A DNA stretch of 14,526 bases, from IMG/VR virus record IMGVR_UViG_2778261256_000010, positions 1 to 14,526 of that record; one strand, 5' to 3'. The notes beneath the pieces are model-generated. The model had not been told where the DNA came from. It did no database searches and saw nothing but the letters and a program-made list of their open reading frames with translations. This stretch comes from a virus. Lineage: Duplodnaviria; Heunggongvirae; Uroviricota; Caudoviricetes. How positions within the stretch are numbered: position 1 is the first letter of the stretch; the number at the start of each line of letters is the position of its first letter. Below, one piece after another: positions 1-14,526 of this stretch. The position numbers and the translations under genes are program-made.

Positions 1-158
1 TCGAAACGTACTCTCAACAGTTCGCTTAGGCATGGAAGTTTTGCGGCATTCTGGCTACACAATAACAAGGGAAGACTTACTCGTGGCTGCAACCCTACTA
101 GCTCAAAATTTATTCACACATGGTTACGCTTTGGGGAAATTATGAGGGGATCTCTCAG
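1..158 (+). mobile_element. IS10-like (IS4 family) insertion sequence, 3' portion ending at the inside end
   Basis: Frame +2 reads ...RNVLSTVRLGMEVLRHSGYTITREDLLVAATLLAQNLFTHGYALGKL then TGA (143-145), which I recognise as the IS10 transposase C-terminus. The last 24 bp (135-158, ...GGAAATTATGAGGGGATCTCTCAG) are the reverse complement of the IS10 inside end CTGAGAGATCCCCTCATAATTTCC. Recognition is from memory. Confidence 0.8.
2..145 (+). CDS. IS10 transposase, C-terminal 47 codons (rest of gene lies left of the window)
   Basis: Open frame from the window edge to TGA at 143-145; sequence matches my recollection of the IS10 transposase tail. Confidence 0.75.
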   Translation, partial: RNVLSTVRLGMEVLRHSGYTITREDLLVAATLLAQNLFTHGYALGKL

Positions 159-386
159 TACTTTATCTCCCTTTTCTGCAGCTAGATCAATCCACTTCTT
201 GGCCTCAACTACATCCTTATCAAAACCATTGATACCATCAAAATAATTTGTCCCTAACTCACTTTGTGCTGCGGTATCCCCTGCGTTAGCGGCTTCTATC
301 AGCGTTTGTTTATTGTCTGCGTTAACGAATCCAGAGCTAAAAAGCAAAGTTAATGCCAGCAACGATGAAGATTTTATGAATTTCAT
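114..386 (-). pseudogene. Sel1-repeat secreted protein, 3'-truncated by IS10 (native part 159-386; 114-158 is read-through into IS10)
   Basis: Start at the second Met of the 114..431 ORF (MKFIKSSSLLALTLLFSSGFVNA, a signal-peptide-like N-terminus). One Sel1-like repeat (AQSELGTNYFDGINGFDKDVVEAKKWIDLAAEKGD) breaks off mid-repeat exactly at the IS10 end (158/159); the last 14 codons are IS10-derived. Confidence 0.6.
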
Positions 387-618
387 ATTTTTTGTTCTGT
401 TGATATAGGATGAACAGTTTAGACGCGGCAAGCGCCAAGTGTGCGAAAAGGGTACTTAAATTTAGTTTATCTGTCAGCTTTGTTAATATAGTTTATAGAT
501 GGTAAAGTTAACAGAAAACTAATCACAGCTAGAAATAATGACTTATTTAATTATTGTGACGCTGCACAAGATATACTTAAATTATAACAACGATAAATAT
601 AATTAAAGGGAAATCAAA

Positions 619-1032
619 ATGAGCAAAAATAAGCTGATTTTAACAGGAGCTTTATTGTCGTTATTTGCTTTAGTGGGGTGTAAACCCACCGACGAGAAGG
701 CTATTTCTCTGGGTCAACAGGCAATTGCGGATGATATGAAAGACCCCTCGTCTGTAATGTTTAGAAAAGATAAGTTCGTCAGGACTGATCATAATGACGG
801 GAGAGTTACCGGTTTTGTGTGCGGTGAATTAAACGCAAAAAATGGATTTGGTGCATACGTGGGCTACCACTCATATGTTGTCGAACTTGAAATGAAATCA
901 AAGGGCATGTTTTCTAAAGGTGTGGAATACAAAATCCTCATGAAGTCATTGGCACCAAACGAGCCTCATGATTTACAGCGTTATAAGCAGGTCTACAGAG
1001 AGATGTGCAACAGTGAGGCTGTAGCTCATTAA
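619..1032 (+). CDS. small lipoprotein, unknown function
   Basis: 137-aa ORF with RBS AAAGGGA 6 nt upstream; N-terminus MSKNKLILTGALLSLFALVGC has a signal peptide and lipobox (LVGC). Confidence 0.7.
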   Translation: MSKNKLILTGALLSLFALVGCKPTDEKAISLGQQAIADDMKDPSSVMFRKDKFVRTDHNDGRVTGFVCGELNAKNGFGAYVGYHSYVVELEMKSKGMFSKGVEYKILMKSLAPNEPHDLQRYKQVYREMCNSEAVAH

Positions 1033-1095
1033 TGTGAATGCCGGGCTTATCGTCTGCCTGGCTTCTTCGTATAGCAGACTATTGCGCCCGATATA

Positions 1096-1115
1096 ATAAG
1101 TAGATACTTACTTAT
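1096..1115 (+). repeat. 20-bp motif ATAAGTA-NN-TACTTACTTAT, copy 1 (identical arms to the copy at 4689-4708; near-copy at 11336-11355)
   Basis: ataagtagatacttacttat, 42 bp upstream of the 1157 start codon and immediately downstream of a perfect TATAAT (1092-1097). Confidence 0.55.
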
Positions 1116-1156
1116 TTTTCTGAAAGAATACTTTCATCTGTTAGTCAGGAGTTGCT

Positions 1157-1951
1157 ATGAAAGAAGAATTTCAGAAGTTAGTCTGCGACATCATCGACAA
1201 ATCCGGCGTAGAAATTGATACAGAAGAGCGCCAGAAGATTATCGACGAGGCGATCCAAACTGCACTGGAGCATATCGCCACGTCCGTGAGCACCGTACCT
1301 CTTTCGGAAGGCTCGAAATACATGCAGGTCTGGGTTCGTTTTGGAGAGTCCCCGGAGTTGCCAGGTGTTAAGCAGAAACGCGCGGCACTTGTGGCGTTCT
1401 CTCGCGAGATGAAAGACGCAACGGTCGAAGTGAGTACCGGTGCATGGTACGACGGCCGCATTGTCTACACCAATCAGACTGTGTGCGATAAAGGTGAACG
1501 GTTTGAGGATATTGTCGACGCAACTCTTCGCACGCTCAAAGTCAGAGCTGGTGTGGCGGATGATCCGTCCATCGCGGCGTTCCTGAGTATTGTCGAACAG
1601 TCTGAAGTTACCGAGCGCGTAACAGATCTGACAACTCCACCTGGTTTGCTGGAATTGGTGGTCAGTGGCGATATCAAAAAAGCCGTTGAGCGCATTCGTG
1701 AGGTGGAATACGGCATTATCTGCGATATGTGCCGCAGCGACTTAGACCTGGTGCGCATCATTGTCGACGCGGGTCAGGCATGTGACGGAGTACTCGCCAG
1801 TTTTGCAGGGCAAGTGGCTCGTCTGGCCAACGAATTACCCATGATTAAACAAGAAGCCAAATCCTACGCCGTTCATCGTACCAACGATTTACTGGACCCA
1901 TACCGGTTCGAAGCTGCTCAGGACAAAATGACTGGCTGGGCGACCTGGTAA
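1157..1951 (+). CDS. hypothetical protein (264 aa), no recognisable motif
   Basis: Long ORF with strong RBS AGGAG (1147-1151) 5 nt upstream, followed by its own terminator. Antisense ORFs 1171..1461 and 1474..1761 are taken as shadows. Confidence 0.7.
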   Translation: MKEEFQKLVCDIIDKSGVEIDTEERQKIIDEAIQTALEHIATSVSTVPLSEGSKYMQVWVRFGESPELPGVKQKRAALVAFSREMKDATVEVSTGAWYDGRIVYTNQTVCDKGERFEDIVDATLRTLKVRAGVADDPSIAAFLSIVEQSEVTERVTDLTTPPGLLELVVSGDIKKAVERIREVEYGIICDMCRSDLDLVRIIVDAGQACDGVLASFAGQVARLANELPMIKQEAKSYAVHRTNDLLDPYRFEAAQDKMTGWATW

Positions 1952-1969
1952 GCCTCGATAAAACATTTA

Positions 1970-1990
1970 GCCCCCTCGTGGGGCTTCTTT
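1970..1990 (+). terminator. Rho-independent terminator
   Basis: GCCCC-ctcgt-GGGGC stem-loop followed by TTCTTT, 19 bp after the stop of the 264-aa gene. Confidence 0.6.
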
Positions 1991-2032
1991 AAACTGCGAT
2001 TAATAAGTAAGTACAAGATTACGGTTAGAAGC

Positions 2033-2509
2033 ATGTCCACAAGAACAGATTTGTCGAAAATCCCGTCTATCTCCGGAAACAACGGTTATTCGCTGCGCTG
2101 CCCGGAAGTGAAGCTCAACGGCCATGAGGCTCATTGCAGCTATACAGTCTGCCAACACACGATCCTCGCCTATAAAGAAAAACGTCTCCCGGCTACATCG
2201 TTCCAGTCCTGCGCTGCGGCTATTGCTGCTGGTAAATGTCAGGCACTGAAAATGATGGTCGAAGAGATCCGCAAAGACGAACAGCTCTACTTCATCGATA
2301 TGTCTTCACTTATCAAAGAAGTGGAAGAGCAAAACGACCATGCCAGAACGCTCCCCCGGAAGCGAAACACCGCGACAATTGACAGTCTTATTCATCGCAC
2401 GAAGAAAACAGAACCTGCTAAATCCGAAACCAATCCCACCGATTCACTGGCGCCGATCACTGACGTGTACGCGGCACTCATTGAAGAAGCAACCAAAGAA
2501 AACACATGA
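2033..2509 (+). CDS. hypothetical Cys-containing protein (158 aa)
   Basis: ORF directly upstream of and co-oriented with the ligase; five Cys in the N-terminal half (C23, C35, C40, C60, C69) suggest a possible metal-binding module. No family recognised. Weak RBS. Confidence 0.55.
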   Translation: MSTRTDLSKIPSISGNNGYSLRCPEVKLNGHEAHCSYTVCQHTILAYKEKRLPATSFQSCAAAIAAGKCQALKMMVEEIRKDEQLYFIDMSSLIKEVEEQNDHARTLPRKRNTATIDSLIHRTKKTEPAKSETNPTDSLAPITDVYAALIEEATKENT

Positions 2510-2543
2510 AAACTCCCGAGCGACCGATGGAGGTTAAACACTA

Positions 2544-3866
2544 ATGGAAAAACTGATCGCCCTAAAGCACAAGCTGGATGCTATTAAAACGATGGGAACC
2601 AACGCCAAGAAAGAGGCGCTGGCCAATCTGGATGAATTTGAACAGAGCATGGTCTCGCTAATGCTCAATCCATTCATTCGATTCGGTGTGAAGAAGTACA
2701 AAGTGGCCGAGCCACTCGATACTTCCGTACCCAGCGACCAGAAGGTAGTAGATCTGCTGGAGAAGCTGGCAGCGCGCGAACTGACCGGGAACATCGCTAT
2801 TGCTGCTGTCGAATCACTCGTTGCCTCGATGTGCGCTGACGGGCAGGACGTGTTTCGTCGCTTCCTGCTGAAAGATCCGAAAGCCGGTGTCGGCATCAGC
2901 CTGTGCAACAAGGTGTTCGAAAACCCAATTCCGAAGTTTGAGGTACAGCTGGCGTCTCCGTACAAGGAGAAAGGCGACAAATACCCATTTAAACCAAATC
3001 CAAAGGCCAAGTGGCCAATGATCGGCAGTCTCAAACTCGATGGTCTCCGGGTTATCTGCGAAGTCATCGTGGACGAGGGTGAGGTCAATTTCCTGACGCG
3101 CACCGGCAATCCGATTACGTCACTCGATCACCTTAAACCAGCCATGCTGGAGCGGGGCAGACTCTCCGGCTTCAATCACATCTTCTTCGATGGAGAGGGC
3201 ACTGCAGGTACATTCAACCAGTCAGTGTCGGCGCTTCGTAAGAAGAACGTGAAAGCCATTGGTGCCGTTTACCACATTTTCGATTTCTTCTTACCGGAGT
3301 GGCGTGCTCAAGCAAAAAGCAAAGAGTACCTGAAGACCGGTATGAAGCTGAAAGAGCGCCTGGCTATGCTGGTGGCGTTGTTCCGCAACACTTGCGTGGA
3401 AGATTATGCGCAAGATATCCACCTTCATCCGTTCTACATCATCCATAGCCACGAAGATTTCATCGAACGTTTCATGAAGCGACTGGACGAGAATGAAGAG
3501 GGAGAGATGGACAAAGATCCGGATTCAGTTTACGAGTTCAAACGTACCCGCAGCTGGTGGAAGCTGAAAGACGAGGATTCAGAAGACGGTGAAATCATCG
3601 ACTTCGAGCCTGGCGATCCGGATTCTGGATTTGCGCATACGCTAGGCAAGATAGTGATTCGTCTGGAGAACGGCGTCATCGTTCGTGCCAGCGGTATCAA
3701 GCATAAATACCTGGATGAAATCTGGAACAATCAGGAGAAGTATCGTGGACGCATCGTTGAGGTTCACTGCCATGAGAAAACGCCAGATGGTAGCTTGCGT
3801 CATCCACGTCTGAAGTGGCCTAAATGTCTTCGAGATACCGAAGATCGTATTGGAGATAAAGAATGA
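2544..3866 (+). CDS. ATP-dependent DNA ligase, phage T4 gp30-like
   Basis: RBS GGAGG upstream. Nucleotidyltransferase motif I KLDGLR (K164, 3033-3050), FFDGEG, WWKLK, and the C-terminal LRHPRLKWPKCLRD (motif VI-like). The N-terminal domain aligns by eye with T4 ligase (ARELTGNIAIAAVESL...ISLCNKVF...LASPYKEKGDK versus T4 TRKLTGNAAIEELTGY...VSIANKVW...LASSYDEKGINK). Confidence 0.85.
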   Translation: MEKLIALKHKLDAIKTMGTNAKKEALANLDEFEQSMVSLMLNPFIRFGVKKYKVAEPLDTSVPSDQKVVDLLEKLAARELTGNIAIAAVESLVASMCADGQDVFRRFLLKDPKAGVGISLCNKVFENPIPKFEVQLASPYKEKGDKYPFKPNPKAKWPMIGSLKLDGLRVICEVIVDEGEVNFLTRTGNPITSLDHLKPAMLERGRLSGFNHIFFDGEGTAGTFNQSVSALRKKNVKAIGAVYHIFDFFLPEWRAQAKSKEYLKTGMKLKERLAMLVALFRNTCVEDYAQDIHLHPFYIIHSHEDFIERFMKRLDENEEGEMDKDPDSVYEFKRTRSWWKLKDEDSEDGEIIDFEPGDPDSGFAHTLGKIVIRLENGVIVRASGIKHKYLDEIWNNQEKYRGRIVEVHCHEKTPDGSLRHPRLKWPKCLRDTEDRIGDKE

Positions 3867-4042
3867 TGCTCGGCTGGATGTTTGTATTTTTAGTCGTCGG
3901 CATTGTTATCGGAAGTCTGGTTATGTCCAGCTGTATCCACGATTACGTAAAAGCCGGTGTCATGCAAAGGCGAGGTCGTATTTATCGCATAGTAGATATC
4001 ACGGACACACTGAAGGAGATTAAGGATGATCATGTTAAGTAA
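3863..4042 (+). CDS. small membrane protein (59 aa), not in the supplied ORF track
   Basis: ATG at 3863 overlaps the ligase stop (ATGA); RBS GGAGA 7 nt upstream; MMLGWMFVFLVVGIVIGSLVMSS is a predicted TM helix; stop TAA 4040-4042. Translated by hand. Confidence 0.45.
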   Translation: MMLGWMFVFLVVGIVIGSLVMSSCIHDYVKAGVMQRRGRIYRIVDITDTLKEIKDDHVK

Positions 4043-4238
4043 ACGAGAGAAGGAAACCCTGCGTGAAATTAGCAAGTGGAAGGAGTTCTACGCCAACTGG
4101 AAGCCGAAGACCAGAGCCAAACTGGAGCGCATGAATCTTGTCGCCAACGTTTCTCCAAAGGGATGTATTGAGAACTATCAACTGACTGAAAAAGGTTATT
4201 TGTTGTTGCAGCAATTGACTGAGGCGGGGGCGCACTGA
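4026..4238 (+). CDS. small hypothetical protein (70 aa)
   Basis: Strong RBS AAGGAG (4013-4018) 7 nt upstream of ATG 4026; soluble, charged sequence; stop overlaps the next start. Confidence 0.55.
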   Translation: MIMLSKREKETLREISKWKEFYANWKPKTRAKLERMNLVANVSPKGCIENYQLTEKGYLLLQQLTEAGAH

Positions 4239-4390
4239 TGATTCCATACATCATTTTATCTTTTACTGGTGGCGTGGGCCTCGGCCTCGCAATCTGCCGC
4301 GCCCTGGTCCAGCAGGAACTGCAAACCAAAACACTTCGTGTCGGTAAGCGTGTGTATCGGGTTGTTCACGAGACGGGAGTGCGAAAATGA
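4238..4390 (+). CDS. small membrane protein (50 aa), not in the supplied ORF track
   Basis: ATG 4238 overlaps the upstream stop (TGATG); MIPYIILSFTGGVGLGLAICRAL is a TM helix; stop TGA 4388-4390 overlaps the ATG of the next gene (4387). Confidence 0.4.
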   Translation: MIPYIILSFTGGVGLGLAICRALVQQELQTKTLRVGKRVYRVVHETGVRK

Positions 4391-4692
4391 GCAATTTGAC
4401 TTCCTTCGACTGGTGGCTGGCAACCTACCTTGTGGCGGCCGGCTTCGGATTTGCCTTTTACATTGGTCAGTTAATCGTAAAGCTACTGCTGATCAGATTC
4501 GCCAGCCATAAACGCATAGACGACGGTCTGTGGCGTCTGGGGTCCCTGTTAGAGACGCATTACGGCGAACTCAAGGAAAACGAAACTATCACTATTCAAG
4601 CGAAGCGTTTTACCGCCATCATCACGAGAACTCCGGAACAAAAGGGGAGCCTGATCAAAAAGATAGCAACTAAACGCATCACAGATAGATAA
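4387..4692 (+). CDS. small membrane protein (101 aa)
   Basis: N-terminal TM segment WWLATYLVAAGFGFAFYIGQLIV followed by a charged C-terminal domain; translationally coupled to the preceding small gene. Confidence 0.6.
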   Translation: MSNLTSFDWWLATYLVAAGFGFAFYIGQLIVKLLLIRFASHKRIDDGLWRLGSLLETHYGELKENETITIQAKRFTAIITRTPEQKGSLIKKIATKRITDR

Positions 4693-4708
4693 GTATTTAC
4701 TTACTTAT
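4689..4708 (+). repeat. 20-bp motif ATAAGTA-NN-TACTTACTTAT, copy 2
   Basis: ataagtatttacttacttat, overlapping the stop codon of the 101-aa gene; followed by CTAATAT...TATAAGAT, which is shared with copy 3. Confidence 0.55.
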
Positions 4709-4884
4709 CTAATATGTATAAGATCACTTTGTTTTCGTTGAGATGCGACTGTTTGAACGTTAAATATAACTGCAAACGAAGATGCATACCTGGCAGTAGC
4801 CTAAGAAGCCAAACACCAGCGAGGTCAGTTTCCAGCCTCGTCACCAAAATGGGACACACTGAGCGAGTGTGATTGCAGAACGCA

Positions 4885-4916
4885 GAATAGGGCATATTGC
4901 ACCATCCATGCCCTAT
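4885..4916. other. perfect 10-bp-stem hairpin (AATAGGGCAT / ATGCCCTATT, 12-nt loop)
   Basis: Direct reading; no U-tract after it, so not a classical terminator. Confidence 0.5.
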
Positions 4917-5071
4917 TCAATGAAGTAACAGAATGGGCGGTTGGTTTCATCATTCCATTCACCCATCCCGGTTTCAGCTGACCGTCCATTCTGTTACGTC
5001 ATTTCCATTACTTATGTCGTTTATACTTGGGTTAAAAGCGGCGACGTAACCCGGCTGACTTGGTTAGTCAG

Positions 5072-5189
5072 CACATAACGTTGAGATCACTGATTTTTCT
5101 TAAAATCATACAGGCGATTCCACATAGCTGTAGCGACTGATCAATATGTTGGGTTGAACATTAATCGGTTCAGTGATCTCAACGTTGTG
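5072..5189. repeat. 17-bp perfect inverted repeat (5076-5092 / 5169-5185; 20 of 21 if extended) flanking a 76-bp spacer
   Basis: AACGTTGAGATCACTGA and its exact reverse complement TCAGTGATCTCAACGTT; three GATC sites within the element. Confidence 0.55.
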
Positions 5190-5435
5190 AAAGCAGGATT
5201 AATTAACCCTCTAGTGAAAACATTGTTGCCTTTATTGCCCCTGACTTCACAACATGTATGATTCCATACATCCAATAAGATCGAAGAATCTAACGGCAAT
5301 CAACCACCGAGAAAGATTCCAGATCTTCGCTCATATGAGCGAGCCACATACCTCGTCTGGCACTAACGTAAAGTGCAAGTTGCGGGAAAGTTTCTGGCTG
5401 CCTGGTTGTCCATAAGCTAGTACCGCCGCGAAAAT

Positions 5436-5510
5436 GATGGTGTAGCTCAGTGGTAGAGCGGTTGACTGTTAATCAACTGGTCGGTGGTTCGAGTCCACCC
5501 ACCATCGCCA
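5436..5510 (+). tRNA. tRNA-Asn (anticodon GTT at 5468-5470)
   Basis: Folded by hand into a full cloverleaf: 7-bp acceptor stem GATGGTG/CACCATC, D-arm GCTC-AGTGGTA-GAGC, anticodon stem GTTGA/TCAAC with loop CTGTTAA, T-arm GGTGG-TTCGAGT-CCACC, discriminator G, encoded CCA. Confidence 0.9.
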
Positions 5511-5663
5511 ACATAGCGCTGAACGGTTTGGATTCGCCACCACCGTCCGAACGAAAGACTCCGCAAATGTCGCCAGACCGTTCAGCGCTGTGATAGACAC
5601 GGCAGACGTTTTTTAACCATTGCTTCTAAGCATCGTAGCAACACTTTTTTCAGCGCAAAATCC

Positions 5664-5685
5664 AAAGGGGCTTCGGCCCCTTTTT
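5664..5685 (+). terminator. Rho-independent terminator downstream of the tRNA
   Basis: AAAGGGGC-TTCG-GCCCCTTTTT: GC-rich stem, tetraloop, T-run. Confidence 0.7.
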
Positions 5686-5764
5686 GCTATCAAGTCGCAT
5701 ATGCAACCAACTTTTTTTAGCTTATAGTTAAGTTCAGTAGTAGAATGCTACGCTTCGTCGAGAA

Positions 5765-6313
5765 ATGACGATTATGGAGTCTATCGTGAAATTTAAAATC
5801 CAGCATTTGCAGGCAGCAGTGGCACTGGTTCTTGCCAGTATCCAGCCGCAACCCAAAGCGGTTGCGTGTCAGCCTACGATTGTAGAACGGGTTTATGAGA
5901 TGGGCGCTAGAGTCAACAAAACCGACATCAGTGATCTTACAGCTGCTCTCAATGAATTGGCTAAAGAACTGCGTTCAAGCCGCGCTGAACTTGCTCATTA
6001 TGCTGACACTGACTTCTTTGCTGCTATCAAAGTAGCGGAAGAAATTAAGAATCAAACTATTCATGTAGCCGGTATCGCAGAATCTTTTGTTTTGATGTTA
6101 CCTGAAAAAGACGTCATCATGTCTTACGACAAAAACACTGTTGAGTTTGCGTTTTTTAAGGCTATTAAAATGGTCAGTATTGCGACCAAAAACTATCTCA
6201 ATCTGATTGATCAGATTACACGCACTTCTGTAGTGCGTGACTCTGGTGTCAACCTTTTAGCCATGAACCATCTATTAGAGACTGGCAACAAGGCTGCGGC
6301 TAAATGGCATTAA
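5765..6313 (+). CDS. putative antitoxin-like partner of the YafO-family toxin (182 aa; true start uncertain)
   Basis: ORF ends 10 nt inside the toxin gene (6304-6313 overlap), the usual toxin-antitoxin coupling. No recognisable Phd/YefM or RHH sequence signature; much larger than E. coli YafN (~97 aa). Confidence 0.45.
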   Translation: MTIMESIVKFKIQHLQAAVALVLASIQPQPKAVACQPTIVERVYEMGARVNKTDISDLTAALNELAKELRSSRAELAHYADTDFFAAIKVAEEIKNQTIHVAGIAESFVLMLPEKDVIMSYDKNTVEFAFFKAIKMVSIATKNYLNLIDQITRTSVVRDSGVNLLAMNHLLETGNKAAAKWH

Positions 6314-6720
6314 CGGCTGAATACAGTCAAGTTACGTGGGATGATTTTTTTCAGCCCACTTTTGTCGTTTACCCTGACCTAGAAAGTCAGCTCAAATCCG
6401 AGTTCATTACTTACAAATCAACTGGCGCACCATCTAATCTTCTTGGACGAGATGCGCCATTTGACTTCCCGCCGTTCGCCGTTGATGCTAATGTCCAGCA
6501 TATTCACGTCAATTTGCATTTCCAGCTTACCTGGAACGCAAGGCAAGAGAACTACAACCGAACCTCAAACCACTATCTCGTTTATACCGAGCACATGTGG
6601 GATAGCGGGCGTTTTTTGCTGATGGGGCTAGTCACTCCAGCTCACGATCGTATGCCAGCAAGAGATACTAGGTTGCTCAGCTACTTCGCTGAAGTCGCAG
6701 AAGGTTTCCATTCTAGCTGA
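6304..6720 (+). CDS. yafO: YafO-family type II toxin (ribosome-dependent mRNA interferase family)
   Basis: Aligned by eye to my recollection of E. coli YafO: FITYKSTGAPSNLLGRDAPFD vs FISYKRDGVLPDIFGRDALYD; VQHIHV vs VAHIHL; RTSNHYLVY vs RTNDEAHLVY; FLLMGLVTPAHDRMPARD vs WLLIAILKPEPHKLARD. Confidence 0.7.
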   Translation: MALTAEYSQVTWDDFFQPTFVVYPDLESQLKSEFITYKSTGAPSNLLGRDAPFDFPPFAVDANVQHIHVNLHFQLTWNARQENYNRTSNHYLVYTEHMWDSGRFLLMGLVTPAHDRMPARDTRLLSYFAEVAEGFHSS

Positions 6721-6887
6721 ACTTTAGCGATCGTCATCTTCTTCATCATTCTTTTTCTTCTAACAAATCATTCTCATCAATCTGGCTCAGATGGCATTCC
6801 AAAGTTGGCGTTATTAGGCGCTTTTTACTATTTAGCGTTTAAGATGGTTTGTCTACATAATTTATTCAGAATTTACGTAAGCTATAT

Positions 6888-6922
6888 AAATGATTCCATA
6901 CTTGTAAGGTATGGAATCATTT
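6888..6922. promoter_or_regulatory. perfect 14-bp inverted repeat AAATGATTCCATAC-N7-GTATGGAATCATTT (candidate operator)
   Basis: Exact palindrome about 100 bp upstream of the recombinase ORF; shares the core TGATTCCATAC with the 15-bp direct repeats at 4238 and 5258. Confidence 0.5.
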
Positions 6923-6973
6923 TCAAAAACAGTCTATTTTACTGTTGATCATACAAAAACTGAGGCCTAACAC

Positions 6974-6992
6974 ACTGTTTATAAATACAGTA
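6974..6992. promoter_or_regulatory. LexA (SOS) box-like site, CTGT-N8-ACAG
   Basis: ACTGTTTATAAATACAGTA against the gammaproteobacterial consensus TACTGTATATATATACAGTA; AT-rich spacer; about 30 bp upstream of ATG 7021. It is the only CTGT-N8-ACAG I found in the window. Confidence 0.5.
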
Positions 6993-7020
6993 AAAACAGG
7001 CTTCACTCAGTGAGTGGACT

Positions 7021-8124
7021 ATGAAAAACACTTTTGATAAAGCACGCGCAGCAGAAAACACCTCTAGAGAAGCCATCGAGTATCTCGAACGCGCTTCCGG
7101 TTTGTCAGCAGTGTCGACCACCAATTTCGACGGTGACATGTCGTTTTCTTCCGCATTCATGTTATTCACTCGCTTATCTTTGCTGATAACGAGACGTCGA
7201 CCTGAAATAGCTGTTCATTGTATTTTGATACATGTAATGCCGCATATCTGTGAAGTAAAAGTAAGTGACATTAGTAGGGTTTTAGTCAACCAGCTGGTGA
7301 ACCCATTAATACTTGAGGGCAAGATCGTCCAGGGCAGACGTGTGTTCTCGCTGATGAAGCAGTTTCTCAGTTGGTGTGCATTTCAGGGCTTAATTGATAC
7401 ATCCCCATTGAACGATATGTCGCTTAACAGAGTAGCCGGTGGCGCGAAGCCCACGCCGCGCGAGCGCAAACTGACCGACGCAGAGGTCTGGGTCTTTTGG
7501 AATGTATGGGACTACTTCAACGTATGTGAGGGTACAAAGTGGGCGGCCAGATTATGCCTTGTAGCGGCCAGACGACCAGATGAAGTGCTCCGAGCTAAAA
7601 GATCAGAATTCAACCTCGAATATAATTTATGGAATCAAGGAACGAGGAATAAATCGGCTCGCCAGCACTCGTTACCATTAAGCCCGCTAATGCGCAAATG
7701 TGTTGAGGAGCTGATCAAATACGGAAAAGGCAGCCAGTGGCTTGTTCCTTCAAACAAGAAACAGGGTGAGGATGTGCCAATGTCTAAGGTGGCCATATCA
7801 CAGGCGTTGAGAAGGATTTTAGAACGTCCAGAGTTGATGGAGCTTGAGCCATTTACCCCCCGAGATTTGCGTCGTACTGCGCGTAGTTACTTCCCCGCGT
7901 TAGGCATAAGTCAGGAGGTATCCCGCAAAATTATGAACCACAGTCTTGAGGGGATAGATCGAGTATACGATCGACACGATTATATAGACGAGATGCGAGA
8001 CGCCTTAAACAGTTTTTCGGCGTACATCGCATCAATCGTAGAGAAACAGGATTTAGAGGAGATAGATCATAAGTTCAAGGGAGATCGACTCGCTACTGAG
8101 CTAATCCGTGTAAATTTCTCATAG
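7021..8124 (+). CDS. tyrosine recombinase/integrase, P4-like catalytic core; arm-binding N-terminal domain absent, first ~60 aa unrelated
   Basis: Core-binding-like segment from about aa 70 (HVMPHICEVKVSDISRVL...VFSLMKQFLSWCAFQGLIDTSPLNDMS); catalytic signatures ARRPDEVL (box I Arg), FTPRDLRRTA (box II, with R where His is usual), NHS, and RVYDRHDY (catalytic Tyr). Confidence 0.65.
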   Translation: MKNTFDKARAAENTSREAIEYLERASGLSAVSTTNFDGDMSFSSAFMLFTRLSLLITRRRPEIAVHCILIHVMPHICEVKVSDISRVLVNQLVNPLILEGKIVQGRRVFSLMKQFLSWCAFQGLIDTSPLNDMSLNRVAGGAKPTPRERKLTDAEVWVFWNVWDYFNVCEGTKWAARLCLVAARRPDEVLRAKRSEFNLEYNLWNQGTRNKSARQHSLPLSPLMRKCVEELIKYGKGSQWLVPSNKKQGEDVPMSKVAISQALRRILERPELMELEPFTPRDLRRTARSYFPALGISQEVSRKIMNHSLEGIDRVYDRHDYIDEMRDALNSFSAYIASIVEKQDLEEIDHKFKGDRLATELIRVNFS

Positions 8125-8517
8125 CGACTTGATTGCCTCAACAACCCGCTCCGACGCACCACGTTGGTCACCGAAACGTCGACGGAAGGCTTCCAGAACT
8201 AGTTTTTCATCTTTAGTCAGAGGGGCTGTGCCTTCGTCGCGAAAAAACGCTAACAGCTCTGGATGACGCTCTTCCAGCACCATTAGCATCAATCGGACCG
8301 AATCGGCATCCAATGCTTTAGCCAACGCTCTGACCTTGTCGATCGGAAGCGGGATTTTGCCGCTCTTGATAAGTGAAAGATTGTTAGGGTTTTTATAGCC
8401 TGCTTCTTTCGCGATGGTCGCCTGGCTTTTCGGAGAAATCGCGATTAAAGCGTCAATGTAAGCAGCGTAGCGACCTACTTTAGCTTCTGTTGTTTCGTTG
8501 GTAGCCATAATTATCAA
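8119..8517 (-). CDS. helix-turn-helix (XRE/Cro-like) transcriptional regulator
   Basis: SQATIAKEAGYKNPNNLSLIKSGKIPLPIDKVRALAKAL is a canonical HTH; convergent with and overlapping the recombinase 3' end by 6 bp. Start may be the second ATG (MATNE...). Confidence 0.65.
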   Translation of the reverse strand: MIIMATNETTEAKVGRYAAYIDALIAISPKSQATIAKEAGYKNPNNLSLIKSGKIPLPIDKVRALAKALDADSVRLMLMVLEERHPELLAFFRDEGTAPLTKDEKLVLEAFRRRFGDQRGASERVVEAIKSL

Positions 8518-8764
8518 CCTGCGTGTTTTGATTTTATTTGGTAAGTGCTTACTGATATTACATCAAAGGTTAGTGTTGTAAAGACTTATCTATTTTTTTA
8601 CGTAGGTTTACTGACCGCAAAAGGCTTCATTAATAGACAACTATCTAAAAAATAACTCATTTAAGAACTTAAAACTAAGTTGTATTTGATATATAAGTAT
8701 TCCGTATTGATACAATAGGTAGTAGTATTGCAAGGCATTTACGTGTTCAGTTGGATGATATGAA

Positions 8765-8977
8765 ATGAAAAAAATAACTTCTAATTTGATCGCCCTTGAG
8801 GTCGGACATACGGTTTCAATTGACGATGATGGGGCAGCAGCCATACTCACTGAACTGCCAACAAAGTCTTTGTTACTTGACATGAAAGACGCAACCGCAT
8901 ACATCTTTGAGCTAAAGGGCAAGTGCTTCACTCTCATCAATACCGGCTGCGGTTCAGTAGCCGTCCGCACAAGTTAA
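8765..8977 (+). CDS. small hypothetical protein (70 aa)
   Basis: RBS-like GGATGA upstream; sits just upstream of the vWA gene; could be spurious (AT-rich surroundings). Confidence 0.35.
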   Translation: MKKITSNLIALEVGHTVSIDDDGAAAILTELPTKSLLLDMKDATAYIFELKGKCFTLINTGCGSVAVRTS

Positions 8978-9002
8978 CACCACCCCTCCCATCCTCTCTA
9001 GC

Positions 9003-9037
9003 GCCTGTACGAACAGATTAGATGCCTGTTCGTACAG
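9003..9037. promoter_or_regulatory. tandem near-palindromic sites GCCTGTACGAACAG / GCCTGTTCGTACAG (candidate operator pair)
   Basis: CTGTACGAACAG (9005-9016) and its exact reverse complement CTGTTCGTACAG (9026-9037), 9-bp spacer, about 55 bp upstream of the preferred start of the vWA gene. Confidence 0.45.
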
Positions 9038-9090
9038 TGATAAATTACGCACATCAGAAAACAAATTGTTTTAACAACAAGGGAATTCTA

Positions 9091-11319
9091 ATGTCCAAAA
9101 AAACCACCAAAGCTGTACTGAAAGAGGTGCAGGATTTTCGCGACTGTGTAAAACGAGTTGTAGCGATGCTTTCAGGTAAACAGATACCTGTTGCAGAACG
9201 AGGCAATGAAGCATATGTCCGCTATAACCGGCGCGGCGAACCAGTGCTGGTAAACATCCCATCTATACCGGACGACGCGTCGCCAACCCTCATGAACGCA
9301 GTGCGTGGTTTTCTCGACCATGAGGTGGCCCATATTCTCTTTACTGAACCGAAAGTCGCAATGCAGATGCGCGAAAGAGGAAAGGCTCCGTCTACGGGGC
9401 TTTGGAATGCGCTGGAAGACGTTTTTATTGAACGCAGAATGGGGCAGGTCTTTAACGGAACCCGGCGTAATTTACTTGCAACACAGAGTCTGGTTATCGA
9501 CAAATACTTCAGGAATAAAGTACCAGAAGCGGTTTTAGCCTGTCACGGAGACCAGCGTGAATTGTTTTTGAAATTCTTCCTTTGCCCGGTCGTCCGCGCC
9601 TGGGATGGACAAAGCCCCTTCATCGATTTTATGGAAGAACACTGGCGCCTTATCGAGAGGCCGGTAGCCTTACTAAAGGAGCATGGTATAGACGTGGCCG
9701 TTCGCAATATGTCGAACACTGAGGATTGCGTGAAGGTCGCTGCTGCTATAGCCCAAATCATGCAGGATATGAAAGACAAGCCAGAGGGCAAATTACCAGA
9801 ACTTAAATCATCTGCCAGAAAGCCGTCGGAGAGCAAAGACGAGTCCGAGGAAACGCCAGAATCAGGTGACGAGCCGTCTCATGGTGACTCTGCATCTAAG
9901 CCTGCCAAAGGCGAAGGCGATGACAAGGAAGAACGAGAAGATGATGCATCAGAAGAGGAAGATTCTGGGGATTCCGATTTGCCTGATTCGTTAGATAAGG
10001 ACTTACCTACACACGTTAAAGATATTAGTGATACAGAAAGTAAATATACAGAAGCAGGCCACGAAGAGTCAGGAGACACCCCAGAATCCGATGCTATCGG
10101 CATGAAATCAAGTGACTCTGACACCGATGGTGATGGCGGTGAGGACTCCGATACTGATCGTGGGGAAACTGAAGAAGACGTCGAAGGCAAAAAAAATAAA
10201 GATGGTGCGGAAGTGCCCAAAGACAGTGAGTCTGGCTTTGTTCCTGCGCCGGATGAAATGACTCTGGAGGAGGCGCTAAAGGCGCTCGACGAGATGGAAG
10301 ACGGAATCGGTGAAATGACCGAAGACGCACTGTCGGCCACCATCAGCAAAGAGCTTATGAGCGTCTCACCTTCTGATTATCGGCCATACGATCGATCATA
10401 CGACTTTATCGGGTTGATTGATGGAGCCGAAGAGCATGTGAAGCGCACCAGAAAGACGTTCGGTGCAATACCAATGCACTCACCAGTCGACCGCTACCGT
10501 ATGGTGCCAGAAGGCAGAAAACTCTTTGAACTGAAAATCGAAAAACATCTGTCTGCAGGCGTTTCTTCGACGCTGGCCAAAGACCTGGAGCGGGCCATCG
10601 CCAGCCGCAACCGAGTTCAGTTTATACCTGGTCAGAGGCGTGGGCGGATACATGGCGCGAGCCTGTATCGTCTGGCAATGAACGACGACCGAGTGTTCCG
10701 CAAGAAGGAAGACCATAGAGCGGTGAACGCGTGTGTCCAGCAAGTCATCGACTTGTCCGGCTCAATGGATGGCGTGAAGATTCAACTGGCCCTAGCCAGT
10801 GCCTATACCATTGCGGATGCTTTAGATCGTATCAATGTCCCCAACATCATCACCGGCTTTACCACGTTCGGTAGCCCAGATTATGAAACCAGGTCGAAGC
10901 GCGGGTTTACACGCTTCGAGGCGCTCATGCTGCCCATTATCAAAAACTGGAATGAGAAAGCAAACTCTCCAGAGATCCGTGCTCGCATGGGATGCGTATG
11001 TGAGACGTTCCCCCTGCTCAATAACGTCGATGGTGAGAGTGTCGCGCAACTGGCTACCCTGTTTGCAGGGCGAATGGAGGACAAAAAGATCATGCTGGTT
11101 ATGAGTGATGGGGAGCCATGTGCTACAGGTAGTGGATTCCATCAGCATTTACGAACCGTCACCAAAGAAATTGAGACCTTGAGCGACATCGAACTGATGG
11201 CTATCGGCATTCTGACCGACGAACCACGGCGTTACTACAAAAATTACGCACTGGTTAACAGTGTTGAAGAGTTAGGGCCGTCAGTCGTCACTGAGTTATC
11301 TCGTATCATTCTTGGGTAA
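9091..11319 (+). CDS. CobT/BchD-like architecture: N-terminal HExxH (zincin-like) module, ~170-180 aa acidic Ser/Asp/Glu-rich linker, C-terminal von Willebrand factor A domain
   Basis: Preferred start ATG 9091 (RBS AAGGGA 6 nt upstream); the track ATG 9022 lies inside the palindrome and lacks an RBS. HEVAH at 9319-9333 with Glu in NALEDVFIERR about 25 aa downstream (gluzincin-like spacing). vWA MIDAS DLSGS (10750-10764), then GFTT and MSDGEP. Confidence 0.75.
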   Translation: MSKKTTKAVLKEVQDFRDCVKRVVAMLSGKQIPVAERGNEAYVRYNRRGEPVLVNIPSIPDDASPTLMNAVRGFLDHEVAHILFTEPKVAMQMRERGKAPSTGLWNALEDVFIERRMGQVFNGTRRNLLATQSLVIDKYFRNKVPEAVLACHGDQRELFLKFFLCPVVRAWDGQSPFIDFMEEHWRLIERPVALLKEHGIDVAVRNMSNTEDCVKVAAAIAQIMQDMKDKPEGKLPELKSSARKPSESKDESEETPESGDEPSHGDSASKPAKGEGDDKEEREDDASEEEDSGDSDLPDSLDKDLPTHVKDISDTESKYTEAGHEESGDTPESDAIGMKSSDSDTDGDGGEDSDTDRGETEEDVEGKKNKDGAEVPKDSESGFVPAPDEMTLEEALKALDEMEDGIGEMTEDALSATISKELMSVSPSDYRPYDRSYDFIGLIDGAEEHVKRTRKTFGAIPMHSPVDRYRMVPEGRKLFELKIEKHLSAGVSSTLAKDLERAIASRNRVQFIPGQRRGRIHGASLYRLAMNDDRVFRKKEDHRAVNACVQQVIDLSGSMDGVKIQLALASAYTIADALDRINVPNIITGFTTFGSPDYETRSKRGFTRFEALMLPIIKNWNEKANSPEIRARMGCVCETFPLLNNVDGESVAQLATLFAGRMEDKKIMLVMSDGEPCATGSGFHQHLRTVTKEIETLSDIELMAIGILTDEPRRYYKNYALVNSVEELGPSVVTELSRIILG

Positions 11320-11335
11320 TAGCTTACCCTTAAAA

Positions 11336-11355
11336 ATAAGTAACTACTTACTATA
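11336..11355 (+). repeat. 20-bp motif, copy 3 (ATAAGTA-AC-TACTTACTATA)
   Basis: 17 bp after the vWA gene stop and about 60 bp upstream of the zinc-finger gene; followed by CTAATAT...TATAAGAT as at copy 2. Confidence 0.5.
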
Positions 11356-11413
11356 CAGCCTAATATATTTCTATAAGATATACCCCACAAACGACAAACA
11401 GTAAGGAAAAAAC

Positions 11414-11680
11414 ATGACCGCTACTGCACTACAGCAAGAAGAACATTTGCCGGAAGCCATCGTCTGCAAGTGGTGTGGCAAATCCTTTCATTACCTGAAA
11501 TCCCATATCTCTATGGGCCGTTGCGAGAATATTCCTGAGTCTGCGAAGGGTCTGGACGTGGACGAAGTGGTGAAGATGTACACCTCTGCGTTTCCAGATG
11601 AACCAACGATCTCTCGCACGGCACTGGCCAAACTCAATGAGAAGGGGTCGTTTGCGGGAGGGGGCGGAATCCTACGCTAA
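11414..11680 (+). pseudogene. Ros/MucR-type zinc-finger mini-protein, 3' end replaced by the Tn3-family inverted repeat (native part 11414-11643)
   Basis: RBS AAGGA 6 nt upstream. IVCKWCGKSFHYLKSHI matches the Ros/MucR zinc-finger IVCLECGGSFKSLKRHL, and SRTALAKLNEKG matches ARSRLAKEMGLG. From codon 78 the ORF is encoded by the transposon IR (GSFAGGGGILR). Confidence 0.5.
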
Positions 11681-11681
11681 G
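11644..11681. repeat. Tn3-family 38-bp terminal inverted repeat (GGGG...ACGCTAAG)
   Basis: GGGGTCGTTTGCGGGAGGGGGCGGAATCCTACGCTAAG; outer GGGG at 11644; the tnpA stop (CTA on +, 11677-11679) lies inside the IR, as is typical of the family. Confidence 0.8.
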
Positions 11682-14449
11682 GCTTTGGCCAGCGATATTC
11701 TCCGGTGAGATTGATGTGTTCCCATCCGAGCGGCGAAACATGGGCCAAGAGATCGGGCGATAGCAGCTTTCCATCGCGTTTCTGGTTTGCAACGACCTCG
11801 CCGAGCTTCATGGTGTTCCAGAAGATGATGATGGCGGCGAGCAGATTCATGCCGGCGATGCGGTAATGCTGGCCTTCGGCGGAACGGTCGCGGATTTCAC
11901 CGCGGCGGTGGAAGCTGATTGCCCGCTTCAGCGCATGATGAGCTTCGCCTTTGTTGAGCCCGATCTGGGCACGCCGTTGGAGTTCGGCATCCAGAATCCA
12001 GTCGATCATGAACAGGGTGCGCTCGACGCGACCGACTTCCCGCAGGGCTGTCGCGAGCTCGTTCTGCCGCGGATAGGAGGCGAGTTTCCGCAGAATCTGG
12101 CTTGGCGCGACGGTCCCGGCAGCAATGGTGGCGGCGATGCGCAGGATGTCGGGCCAATTGCGCTCGATCATGGCTTGGTTGACCTTTCCGCCGATCAACG
12201 CTCGCAGGTGCGCCGGGGCGGCCGACGGATTGAACGCGTAGAGCCGTTTGGATGGCAGGTCGCGGATGCGCGGAGCGAACCGGTAGCCGAGAATGGCACA
12301 TGCGGCAAAGACGTGATCGGTGAAGCCGCCCGTGTCGGTGAACTGCTCGCGGATATGGCGTCCAGCATCGTTCATCAGCAGGCCATCGAGGATGTAAGGC
12401 GCTTCGCTTGCCGTTGCAGGAATCACCTGGGTTGCGAACGGCGCATATTGGTCGGAGACGTGGCTATAGGCTTTCAGGCCCGGGGTATTGCCATATTTCG
12501 CGTTGACCAGGTTCATGGCCTCACCTTGCTCTGTAGCGACGAAGAACTGTCCGTCGCTCGAAGCCGACGTGCCCATGCCCCAGAACCGGGCCATGGGTAA
12601 CGCTGCCTGTGCCTCGACCACCATGGCCAGCGCCCGGTCATAGGCTTCGCCCTCGACATGCCACCGTCCAATGCGGATCAATTCCCAGAAGGTGTGGGTG
12701 TTTGTCGCATCCGCCATTTTGCGCAAGCCGAGGTTGATCCCTTCCGCCAAGATAACGTTCATTAGCCCGATCCGGTCAGCGCAGGGTGCTCCTGTGCGCA
12801 GATGGGTGAACGCTTCGGTGAAGCCGGTCGCCGCATCCACCTCCAGCAGGAGATCGGTGATGCGCGTGGGCGGGATCTGCTTGTAGAGATCGAGCACCAG
12901 ATCTTCGGCGCCTGTCGGCGCGGCGGCTTCGAGTTTCTCGATATGCAGAACGCCGTTTTCAATCGACCCGCCCGGGATCGTGCCTGCGCGAGCGGCACGG
13001 CCAAGCTCGCGCAACCGCATGTCGAGGCGAGCTTGCCGGTCTGCCAGCCATTCCTCCGGCCGCAATGGCACAGCGAGACGACCGCCTTCCGCGATGGATT
13101 GTGCCGGAACGAGTGCGTGTTTCAGATCGCCATAGCGCCGGGACCTAGTAAGCCAGACATCTCCGGAGCGGAACGCATCGCGCAGATGGAACAGCACCGC
13201 GATCTCCCATAGGCGAGCGTCGCCAGCCCTCTGGGCCCGAAGGTGGCGATGCCATTTCGAGCTGGGCCGCAAGAAGCTGGTCATCGCGGCATCGTTCAAA
13301 CCGGTACGAAGGGCCGTCACCGCTTCCAGAAGCGGCAGTGCAACGGGCGCAGCTCGCAGATCGAGCAGGCGCAACATGCGTGGAGCGTATCGGCGGAAGC
13401 GGTGATAACCGTCGAGCACATGATTGAGCGGATCGTCGGCCATGGTGGCGGTCAGCCTGGTTGCCATTGCAACAAGGGTTTTTAAGCCGTCCCACCCTGA
13501 CCCACTCGCGATGACATCGCCCAGCGGCTGGCCATCATCCTGTGCATCGACCAGGGCGCCCCCGATCTCGGCGAAGGATTTCAGGGTGTCACGCACCACC
13601 CCCGCTTCGTCTGCGACCTTTGCATGGCAAATACGCTCCGAAGCACGGTAGAGACGGCCGACGATCCGGTCGTGGGTTTCGACCACTGCGTCGGCCAACA
13701 TCGCCTGCCATTCCGAGACGCAAACAGCCAAGATCGCAAGCCGCCTGTCCTCCGGGAGATCGCGCATGCCGTCGGCATAATACCGTTCACCCTGCCTGCG
13801 CAGACGAGTCACCCGATGGGCAGGAACGCCGGCAAGCAGATCCTCGGGGAGATCGATGCGTTGCAGATATTCGAGCCGGTCGAGCAGCCGGTTGGCCGAC
13901 GAAGAGTTCGAGCCAGGCTCGAACTGGCGCAGCCACACAAAACGGGTCACCCGATCATCAGCCGTCTCCTCGAGCAATGCCAGCAACTGTTCTCGGATCG
14001 ACATAGGCAGCCGACTGGCGATCCTCGTCTCGATGCGTCGCTCGGCATCGACGAGAGCCGCGGCACAAAGCCGCTCGATCGTGGATGTCGCGGGAAGGAC
14101 AGTGCGGGTGCGTCGGCACTCGGCTACGAAGCGACGGGCGATATCCTCGTTCGACACCGCCATCTCGGCTTCTCGGAACAACCATTCCTTCAGCTCGCTC
14201 GCACCACGTCCGGAGAAGGTGCGGAAGCCGTAGAGCCCCCGTAACTCGGCAAGATGCTCGTGCCGTGTTTCCTCGCGGGCAGCATAGTCTACGAGATCGT
14301 CGGCACCCAGGCCAAGCTGCGCTCCGATAAATTCGATGACCTCTGCAGGGATCAGTTCGCCTGGAGCCAGCACCCGGCCGGGATAGCGCAGGACACACAA
14401 TTGCAGGGCGAAGCCGAACCTGTTGTGAGCGCGCCGACGCAGCCTGATA
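11644..14449 (-). mobile_element. Tn3-family transposon remnant (one IR plus 5'-truncated tnpA; no res, tnpR or cargo in view)
   Basis: High-GC block bounded by the 38-bp IR on the left and the IS10 outside end on the right. Confidence 0.8.
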
Positions 14450-14505: not shown

Positions 14506-14526
14506 CTTGTCATATGATCAAATGGT
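14450..14526 (+). mobile_element. IS10-like outside end (5' portion of a second IS10 copy, continuing past the window)
   Basis: CTGATGAATCCCCTAATGATTTTTATCAAAATCATTAAGTTAAGGTAGATACACATCTTGTCATATGATCAAATGGT matches my recollection of the IS10 outside end and pIN/pOUT region with a few substitutions. Confidence 0.8.

Follow-up and report, generated by a model that had tools for sequence, protein, structure and literature searches.

The stretch of DNA analysed here (the window: all 14,526 nucleotides, positions 1 to 14,526 of IMG/VR virus record IMGVR_UViG_2778261256_000010) carries int, the gene for a tyrosine recombinase (Int), and several copies of a short motif dispersed around it, two of which face each other as a palindrome just upstream of int. 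In a database comparison, the window is 99.5–99.8% identical to plasmids of 70–230 kb from Escherichia coli and E. fergusonii, and its relatives include Salmonella phage SSU5 and Escherichia phage Cyrano. Its gene order comprises a ligase gene with several small genes, tRNA-Asn, cargo, int, a convergent helix-turn-helix (HTH) gene, a gene for 70 amino acids (aa), and cobT. Since this order matches the SSU5/pHCM2/pMT1 type, the window is, judged by comparison, part of an extrachromosomal phage-plasmid of that type and not a P4-like island.

The original prediction had described two identical 15-mers, one opening a micro-gene and the other about 165 bp upstream of a tRNA gene, and a palindrome made of the same core upstream of the recombinase. 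Reading of the sequence and a pattern search bear out these features, the gap to the tRNA gene being 164 bp. In this search of the window, the 15-mer with at most 2 mismatches gives 4 matches against 0.04 expected, a number reached in 0 of 200 shuffles, while 5 matches, against an expected 0.23, are obtained for the 11-mer core with at most 1 mismatch; the fifth is TGATTCCATAA inside int, which had been overlooked. The motif copies and the features that surround them are as follows.

4238–4252, plus strand: orphan half-site 1, ATGATTCCATACATC (arm followed by ATC), forming the start codon and first four codons of an open reading frame (ORF) of 50 aa
4238–4390, plus strand: micro-gene ORF of 50 codons (MIPYI...), annotated as a gene in SSU5 and Cyrano
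5258–5272, plus strand: orphan half-site 2, ATGATTCCATACATC (arm followed by ATC), inside a 740-bp non-coding stretch before tRNA-Asn
5436–5510, plus strand: tRNA-Asn (GTT), intact and phage-borne, neither interrupted nor abutted by motif copies
6862–6887, no strand: semi-conserved A/T-rich flank, cagaatttacgtaagctatat, directly left of the palindrome; the variable cargo begins to its left
6888–6922, no strand: full site (palindrome) with 14-bp perfect inverted arms and a 7-bp asymmetric spacer (14-7-14)
6888–6901: left arm of the palindrome, AAATGATTCCATAC
6902–6908: spacer of the palindrome, TTGTAAG
6909–6922: right arm of the palindrome, GTATGGAATCATTT
6945–6950 and 6968–6973, plus strand: putative int promoter, −35 TTGATC and −10 TAACAC (spacing 17)
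6975–6990, plus strand: near-consensus LexA box, CTGTTTATAAATACAG, after the putative promoter and between the palindrome and the int start codon
7021–8124, plus strand: int, tyrosine recombinase of 367 aa with core-binding and catalytic domains
7624–7637, minus strand: degenerate half-site within int, TGATTCCATAAATT, over the codons L-W-N-Q; its 11-mer part, TGATTCCATAA, lies at 7627–7637
8119–8517, minus strand: HTH (XRE-like) putative lysogeny repressor, annotated in relatives as XRE/HTH regulator or putative repressor

The palindrome and its recombinase

The association between int and the palindrome was followed in 80 IMG/VR loci whose Int is 80–100% identical, in 4 GTDB loci and in 8 distant homologues that were fetched, within a collection of about 200 contigs overall. 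The palindrome lies 52–138 bp upstream of every int homologue examined (80/80 IMG/VR, the 4 GTDB and 8/8 distant loci), at about 128 bp in the 80 IMG/VR loci, and all relatives share a layout of 11 to 15-7-11 to 15. Over 54 distinct sequences, the arms, (A)ATGATTCCATAC, are invariant and the spacer and outer flanks vary, the spacer taking at least 12 forms across all loci and always keeping its length of 7 bp. In Int homologues of 45–50% identity, both arms switch symmetrically to GACTCCAGAC, so that two arm classes, GATTCCATAC and GACTCCAGAC, follow the divergence of Int. Since both arms change together, a symmetric, sequence-specific dimer is indicated. Representative relatives are listed below.

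Nissabacter: Int identity 63%, arm CAATGATTCCATAC, spacer TTATATA
Serratia: Int identity 59%, arm TGATTCCATAC, spacer CTATATA
Klebsiella: Int identity 58%, arm TGTGATTCCATAC, spacer TATATAA
Xenorhabdus: Int identity 46%, arm ATGTGACTCCAGAC, spacer GTAGTTA
Providencia: Int identity 45%, arm ATGACTCCAGAC, spacer TACATAG

Three further homologues of 47–50% identity, on JGI metagenome, Erwinia and Rahnella contigs, are devoid of phage genes over the 20 kb fetched and have no HTH gene next to int, which stands there amid metabolic, transport or type VI secretion genes, and all three keep GTGACTCCAGAC-N7-GTCTGGAGTCAC 52–136 bp upstream of int. The persistence of the palindrome beside int where HTH gene and phage genes are missing means that the site travels with int and not with the repressor gene. 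A pattern scan for the GACTCCAGAC-class palindrome added 8 viral contigs, 7 of which have an int homologue 95–140 bp away. On one viral contig (L374, 5271–5299), a palindrome of the same type is flanked by about 5 kb on each side in which int is not recognisable, and may be a decayed module. Among the spacers, which follow a loose YTNNTAR pattern, CTATTAA is the reverse complement of TTAATAG, and each is found in both arm classes (L020/L089 versus L013 and others; L098 versus L099), and hence the asymmetric spacer occurs in either orientation relative to int.

These results bear directly on the HTH regulator, which the original prediction had named beside the recombinase as a possible binder. 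All phage-plasmid relatives share the synteny of the HTH gene with int, and the palindrome has the dyad symmetry of an operator. However, no motif copy is found in 8518–8764, the divergent promoter region of the repressor, the palindrome persists where int has no HTH neighbour, and its arm centres lie about 20 bp apart, unlike typical operators of HTH dimers. Moreover, a different and enriched palindrome, TAAGTA-N3-TACTTA, occupies intergenic sites that include this promoter region. It is, thus, highly improbable that the motif is the operator of the adjacent XRE-like repressor.

The putative int promoter, whose −10 element TAACAC reads TAATAT in relatives, begins about 40 bp downstream of the palindrome, and a CTG-N10-CAG box is found at most 140 bp from the site in 131 of 138 distinct contexts. 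This conserved box implies that the recombinase would be under SOS control, as the repressor gene perhaps also is via convergent transcription. Induction by genotoxic stress has been described for Cyrano (PMC9928086).

The domain composition of Int differs from that of the integrases to which it is distantly related. Pfam matches only PF00589 and PF22022, the core-binding match being weak, and finds no arm-binding domain PF13356 in Int. This domain is missing from the family as a whole (about 340–380 aa), whereas relatives of 24–33% identity (360–464 aa) carry it. In agreement with this, the AlphaFold2 model (predicted local distance difference test score, pLDDT, 86.7) has an all-helical N-terminus (residues 1–57) and not the β-sheet arm-binding fold. 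Its best fold match is lambda Int 75–356, followed by Tn1549 Int and Xer proteins, with Cre far lower in the ranking (E about 1e-2). Int descends from P4-type integrases, to which it is distantly related (24–33% identity). R185, K211, R284, H307 and Y316 are conserved in an alignment covering 24–100% identity, and Int is likely to be catalytically active.

Copy number and location are equally uniform. Each of 113 contigs has a single full site, and so does the complete Cyrano genome of 108 kb. Of 5426 complete E. coli genomes, 251 carry the int-plus-site module, with 252 copies in total, which are plasmid-borne in 252 of 252 cases and chromosomal in none. A site split into attL and attR was seen in none of the 86 loci with 10-kb flanks and 113 contigs, and the largest contigs with a close Int (up to 897 kb) provide plasmid-like contexts only. 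The differences in spacer among close lineages are incompatible with a conserved chromosomal attachment site (attB), while they would be neutral for a site that meets only its sister copy.

These observations also decide largely against the palindrome being a phage attachment site (attP) through which Int, in the manner of P4 or lambda, integrates into a chromosomal attB, with the repeats as arm-type sites. Such a system would agree with the distant relationship to P4-type integrases, with the shared core-binding and catalytic fold, with a 7-bp spacer equal to their overlap length, with extra sites flanking the core in opposite orientations, and with the tRNA gene nearby. Nevertheless, 0 of 252 E. 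coli copies of the module are chromosomal, every locus seen has an intact site, closely related lineages have different spacers, and the arms are perfectly symmetric, unlike those of lambda- and P4-type integrases. The tRNA-Asn gene, which SSU5 and Cyrano have as well, lies intact at a distance of 1.4 kb from the palindrome, and is a phage cargo gene rather than an attachment site. Of the earlier suggestion that these are recombinase arm-type sites in an attachment region like that of P4-like islands, the part that stands is the assignment of the motif to the neighbouring recombinase, with which it travels and co-varies. The sites are core-type and not arm-type, as the orphan copies share the core-arm sequence, lie 1–7 kb away and accompany an Int without an arm-binding domain, and the comparison with P4-like islands does not apply to an element that is extrachromosomal. 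Integration through this site is, therefore, improbable in the extreme.

Half-sites away from the core

In addition to the palindrome, the motif is kept as single copies, or orphan half-sites, at fixed places of related elements. In the 108-kb Cyrano genome, the perfect 12-mer occurs at only 5 positions against 0.02 expected, all within 9.2 kb around int: at 37802 (plus) and 38814 (plus), in the two palindrome arms, and at 47010 (minus) inside dnaE. Any resemblance of the motif to consensus sites for IHF, DnaA, CRP, Tus or matS appears poor. Every orphan copy consists of TGATTCCATAC followed by ATC, rarely by ATT, ACC or ATA, all four orthologous classes being alike in this respect. ATC never follows the arms in any core spacer, and only 3 of the 7 spacer bases are common to the orphan sites. 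The conservation profiles contain no degenerate second arm 7 bp beyond any orphan copy.

The orientation of these copies was surveyed in the 86 loci with 10-kb flanks. The plus copies, at the micro-gene start and in non-coding DNA, are always left of the palindrome, 1.2–7 kb off depending on the cargo (86/86 loci), and the minus copies are always right of it, at +733 inside int in about half of the loci and at +6.0–6.3 kb inside dnaE; the opposite orientation was never seen in these loci. Distances between orphan and core thus range from 733 bp to 7.1 kb with the cargo, and the copies are not contiguous with the core (about 100 bp). The dnaE half-site, at about +6.2 kb in intact relatives, falls outside the window because a Tn3-family transposase gene interrupts the backbone.

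Conservation was counted in orthologue alignments built without selecting on the motif. Among alignable orthologous loci, perfect copies are found in 56 of 58 for the micro-gene site, 33 of 35 for the non-coding site and 74 of 76 for the dnaE site. At half-site 1 the flanks vary while the motif holds, and half-site 2 is an island of identity amid diverged non-coding DNA. The dnaE motif encodes G-C-M-E-S-L. In the 39 of 42 distinct sequences that carry it, none of its 16 nucleotides (nt) varies, the four degenerate third-codon positions included, while the flanking wobble positions vary freely and the surrounding protein segment differs between lineages; in three distant lineages, this place has other residues and no motif. 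The frozen wobble positions, therefore, reveal selection on DNA, or on RNA. The copy within int is perfect (TGATTCCATACATC) in Yersinia, Kluyvera, Salmonella and Klebsiella lineages and degenerate in those of the window and Cyrano. Orphans are present only in lineages with GATTCCATAC core arms, and no copy of either type exists in GACTCCAGAC-arm lineages. In one Klebsiella locus (L093), the bases 5' of the arm have changed in both the core and orphan site 2 and match there (TGTG), giving TGTGATTCC.

Selection on RNA could take several forms. The palindrome could form a hairpin, and the plus copies (AUGAUUCCAUACAUC) could be sense elements that pair with the minus copies in int and dnaE mRNAs; otherwise, a minus-strand RNA across 5258 could act against the micro-gene start in the manner of a type I toxin–antitoxin system. 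With all genes here on the plus strand, upstream plus copies and downstream minus copies would be regulator–target pairs, which would explain their orientation; the complementarity of 15–16 nt is perfect and conserved, the three variants in robust sites are G:U-compatible transitions, and the micro-gene product is hydrophobic and resembles a small membrane peptide. However, the stems are invariant over the 54 sequences and do not show compensating changes, the palindrome is upstream of the predicted int promoter, and it accompanies int on unrelated replicons devoid of orphan copies. Moreover, an Rfam scan of the window matched the tRNA alone, and scans for sigma-70 promoters and terminators gave weak −10 matches on nATGAT of both 15-mers, with totals equal to chance and nothing above chance around 5258. 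Thus, a function of the motif in RNA is very unlikely.

Probable role of the site

Cre, Flp, Dre and Xer all act at core sites with perfect arms of 13–14 bp around a spacer of 6–8 bp, and lambda-type integrases have a 7-bp overlap. The combination of a single plasmid-borne site, this core-site geometry and variable spacers makes a Cre/lox-like module for multimer resolution the best reading of the locus. The 35-bp palindrome would be the core site of the adjacent Int, serving multimer resolution and autoregulation, and the 15-mers would be auxiliary Int half-sites, a reading to which we assign a probability of roughly 60%. Two Int monomers would bind the two arms of the palindrome, the two sites of a plasmid dimer would come together in a synaptic tetramer, and the dimer would be resolved by an exchange of strands over the 7-bp spacer, as happens with Cre at loxP in the phage-plasmid P1. 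The site lies shortly ahead of the LexA-controlled int promoter, so that Int occupying it would probably also autoregulate its own gene. Each orphan half-site would most likely bind a single Int monomer and act as an auxiliary site, either by long-range cooperative binding or looping with the Int–core complex or as a weak one-armed recombination partner.

The resemblance to Cre/loxP of P1, and to Dre/rox, VCre/VloxP and Vika/vox, includes a simple tyrosine recombinase without an arm-binding domain on an extrachromosomal phage-plasmid, a single site per replicon, perfect inverted arms of 13–14 bp, a short asymmetric spacer, and an adjoining recombinase gene, an arrangement from which multimer resolution is expected. 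In contrast, the spacer has 7 bp here, against 8 in loxP and 4 in rox. Moreover, Int is not Cre-like by sequence or by fold rank, where lambda Int comes first; it descends from P4-type integrases and its activity is predicted. Finally, a LexA box stands at the promoter and conserved orphan half-sites are kilobases away.

The reuse of a core motif as single copies in fixed orientation is also found in TnpI/IRS of Tn4430 (DR1/DR2), in IntI/attI (DR1, DR2) and in the third Flp element of FRT, and IntI further shares LexA regulation and adjoining variable cargo. Nevertheless, the accessory copies of these systems lie within about 100 bp and on one side of the core, whereas the copies here are 1–7 kb off, on both sides, two of them inside genes, and have a conserved ATC extension. 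No sites resembling the cassette sites of attI systems were found in the cargo. The Rci/sfx shufflon of R64 likewise has sites with one conserved arm beside a 7-bp spacer and copies in both orientations; here, unlike in Rci/sfx, only 3 of 7 spacer bases are common to the orphans, inversion isomers number 0 of 292, and a symmetric full site is present. A stronger proposal is that the orphan half-sites are functional one-armed Int sites which, together with the core, would build a long-range, orientation-dependent architecture across the cargo and lysogeny module into dnaE. It could, for example, take the form of a loop that insulates or represses, of a polar barrier, or of low-frequency programmed rearrangements like the one carried by plasmid NZ_CP122497.1 (see below). 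We regard it as doubtful.

Several observations weigh against a resolution system with auxiliary half-sites, and the first group concerns Int. The first catalytic histidine (His-I; residue 281, window 7861–7863) is replaced by Arg (PRDLRRT) throughout the family proper, while four of the six most distant aligned sequences, P4-type relatives with an arm-binding domain, retain His (PHDLRRT). Because of this replacement, the activity of Int is an assumption. In addition, the fold matches of Int include, weakly (TM scores of 0.29–0.32), MrpR, YopR and SroF, which are recombinase-fold repressors without recombination activity, and a perfect palindrome some 40 bp ahead of the −35 element of a LexA-controlled promoter would equally fit a pure operator. 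Int, or a non-recombining protein of its fold, could therefore be a DNA-binding regulator, with the palindrome as operator and the conserved dispersed copies as operators or roadblocks. The SPβ-like master repressors MrpR, YopR and SroF share with Int the tyrosine-recombinase fold, a gene in the lysogeny module and multiple dispersed sites. However, the fold similarity is weak, the remaining catalytic set, with the tyrosine and the arginines, is conserved at 24–100% identity, and a 13-7-13 layout whose 7-bp spacer varies freely is characteristic of sites for strand exchange. Moreover, two orphan copies are within coding sequence and away from promoters, and solitary int-plus-site modules occur on contigs without nearby phage genes, where there is no lysogeny decision to control. 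A purely regulatory system is, thus, unlikely.

The second group concerns the orphans and the products that recombination between sites would leave. A chimeric query that joined the left flank of site 1 to the right flank of site 2 through the 15-mer matched NZ_CP122497.1 (E. coli from duck, 107 kb, IncFIB) end to end with 99.8% identity, and the alignment places there a precise loss of 1020 bp between the two 15-mers, with the junction within the 15-mer. The repeats, thus, do recombine, although this could reflect Int-mediated exchange or slippage between 15-bp repeats. The inversion junction of site 2 with the dnaE site was found in 0 of 292 plasmid records, the deletion junction of site 2 with the core in 0 of 466 and that of site 1 with the core in 0 of 559, and flank typing of 403 motif contexts revealed no further hybrid. 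The orientation rule rests on about four independent sites and would arise by chance roughly 1 time in 8, and the kilobase distances of the orphans are, to our knowledge, unlike those of any accessory site.

It might be that the palindrome alone is functional and that the orphan 15-mers are old recombination scars or chance matches under coding constraint. Three of the four orphan classes are in coding sequence; the copy inside int, which two E. coli lineages have in degenerate form, is largely accounted for by the codons for xVWNQ, and for this reason counts as weak evidence of selection; and SSU5 and L185, which have no int, retain the orphan sites. Nevertheless, the loss of int in these two is very recent, the N-terminus of DnaE being 100% identical to that of int-bearing relatives and the SSU5 junction occurring in 0 of 585 plasmids, and they do not, for this reason, test the dependence of orphans on Int. 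Moreover, the four classes share an identical 14–15-mer that includes the ATC which the core does not have, the wobble positions in dnaE are frozen in an otherwise variable protein segment, the non-coding copy is an island of identity, and 0 copies occur elsewhere in 108 kb. Orphans without function are, hence, decidedly unlikely.

Literature searches on the element, the function and the sequence itself yielded no account of the site, and reviews say only that phage-plasmids may carry dimer-resolution recombinases (PMC7969092; PMC11652158). The core site itself joins a known class of core sites, and the novelty lies in the conserved, kilobase-distant orphan half-sites, one of which is written into a polymerase gene. 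Phage-plasmids of the SSU5/pHCM2/pMT1 type are common in Enterobacterales, and the module is also present on Y. pestis, Salmonella and Klebsiella plasmids. The annotated "integrase" of a non-integrating element gains a probable target and, with it, a testable mechanism of maintenance, and the LexA box ties this module to the SOS response that induces these phages. Int and its site, of which two arm specificities and many spacer variants exist in nature, could provide a new orthogonal recombinase/site pair, and selection at the DNA level appears to write a recombinase half-site into an essential polymerase gene. If the long-range architecture of orphans were true, it would represent a recombinase-based layer of control over the plasmid/phage switch that has no described counterpart.

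The surrounding phage-plasmid

A hot spot of variable cargo (5511–6860) extends between the tRNA gene or genes and the palindrome, and its content differs among close relatives (L002, L092, L093, L096, L375). In the window, it holds a YafO toxin (6304–6720) with a 182-aa partner upstream, and in relatives glutaredoxin, Acb2/Tad1-like, Tad2-like, PhoH, Ail/Lom or extra tRNAs. Homology between E. coli lineages restarts exactly at the left edge of the palindrome; between the window and an E. coli group of 79% identity, it begins at 6887–6889.

The 740-bp stretch before tRNA-Asn (4693–5435), where relatives have no annotated gene, is kept in SSU5 and partly in Cyrano. It holds long inverted repeats at 4919–4941/4981–5003 (23 nt) and 5074–5093/5170–5189 (20 nt), and RNA folding of 5190–5440 gives z = −2.07. 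Directly after tRNA-Asn, another inverted repeat of 20 nt (5512–5531/5573–5592; 90% complementary, 41-nt loop) is present, and the homology of SSU5 to the window ends near it, at about 5550. SSU5 (L003, 7513–7678) is devoid of the whole cargo–int–repressor module, cobT following directly after the tRNA gene, and the finding of this junction in 0 of 585 related plasmids suggests that SSU5 is a recent deletion derivative without the lysogeny module. In L185 (2058–6062), int is absent and other cargo is present. The cumulative GC skew of Cyrano, checked for an origin or terminus behind the converging orientation of the motif copies, merely tracks the direction of transcription.

On the other side of int, the backbone is broken after cobT and an 88-aa gene by a G+C-rich ORF of 942 aa for a Tn3-family transposase (11677–14505, minus strand). 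The int (plus) and HTH (minus) genes converge with a 6-bp overlap (8119–8124) that is kept in all phage-plasmid relatives, and SOS-induced transcription of int would run antisense into the HTH repressor-like gene. The palindrome TAAGTA-N3-TACTTA, unrelated to the Int motif, is exemplified by ATAAGTAGATACTTACTTAT and occurs at 1096–1115, 4689–4708 and 11336–11355, with weaker copies at 8541–8556, 8578–8593, 2298–2313 and 9995–10009. As a 15-bp palindrome, it gives 14 strand-matches against 0.58 expected, and its copies directly follow stop codons or occupy the intergenic region that separates the HTH gene from the divergent 70-aa gene. It is a candidate operator of the HTH repressor or a candidate phage promoter or terminator element.

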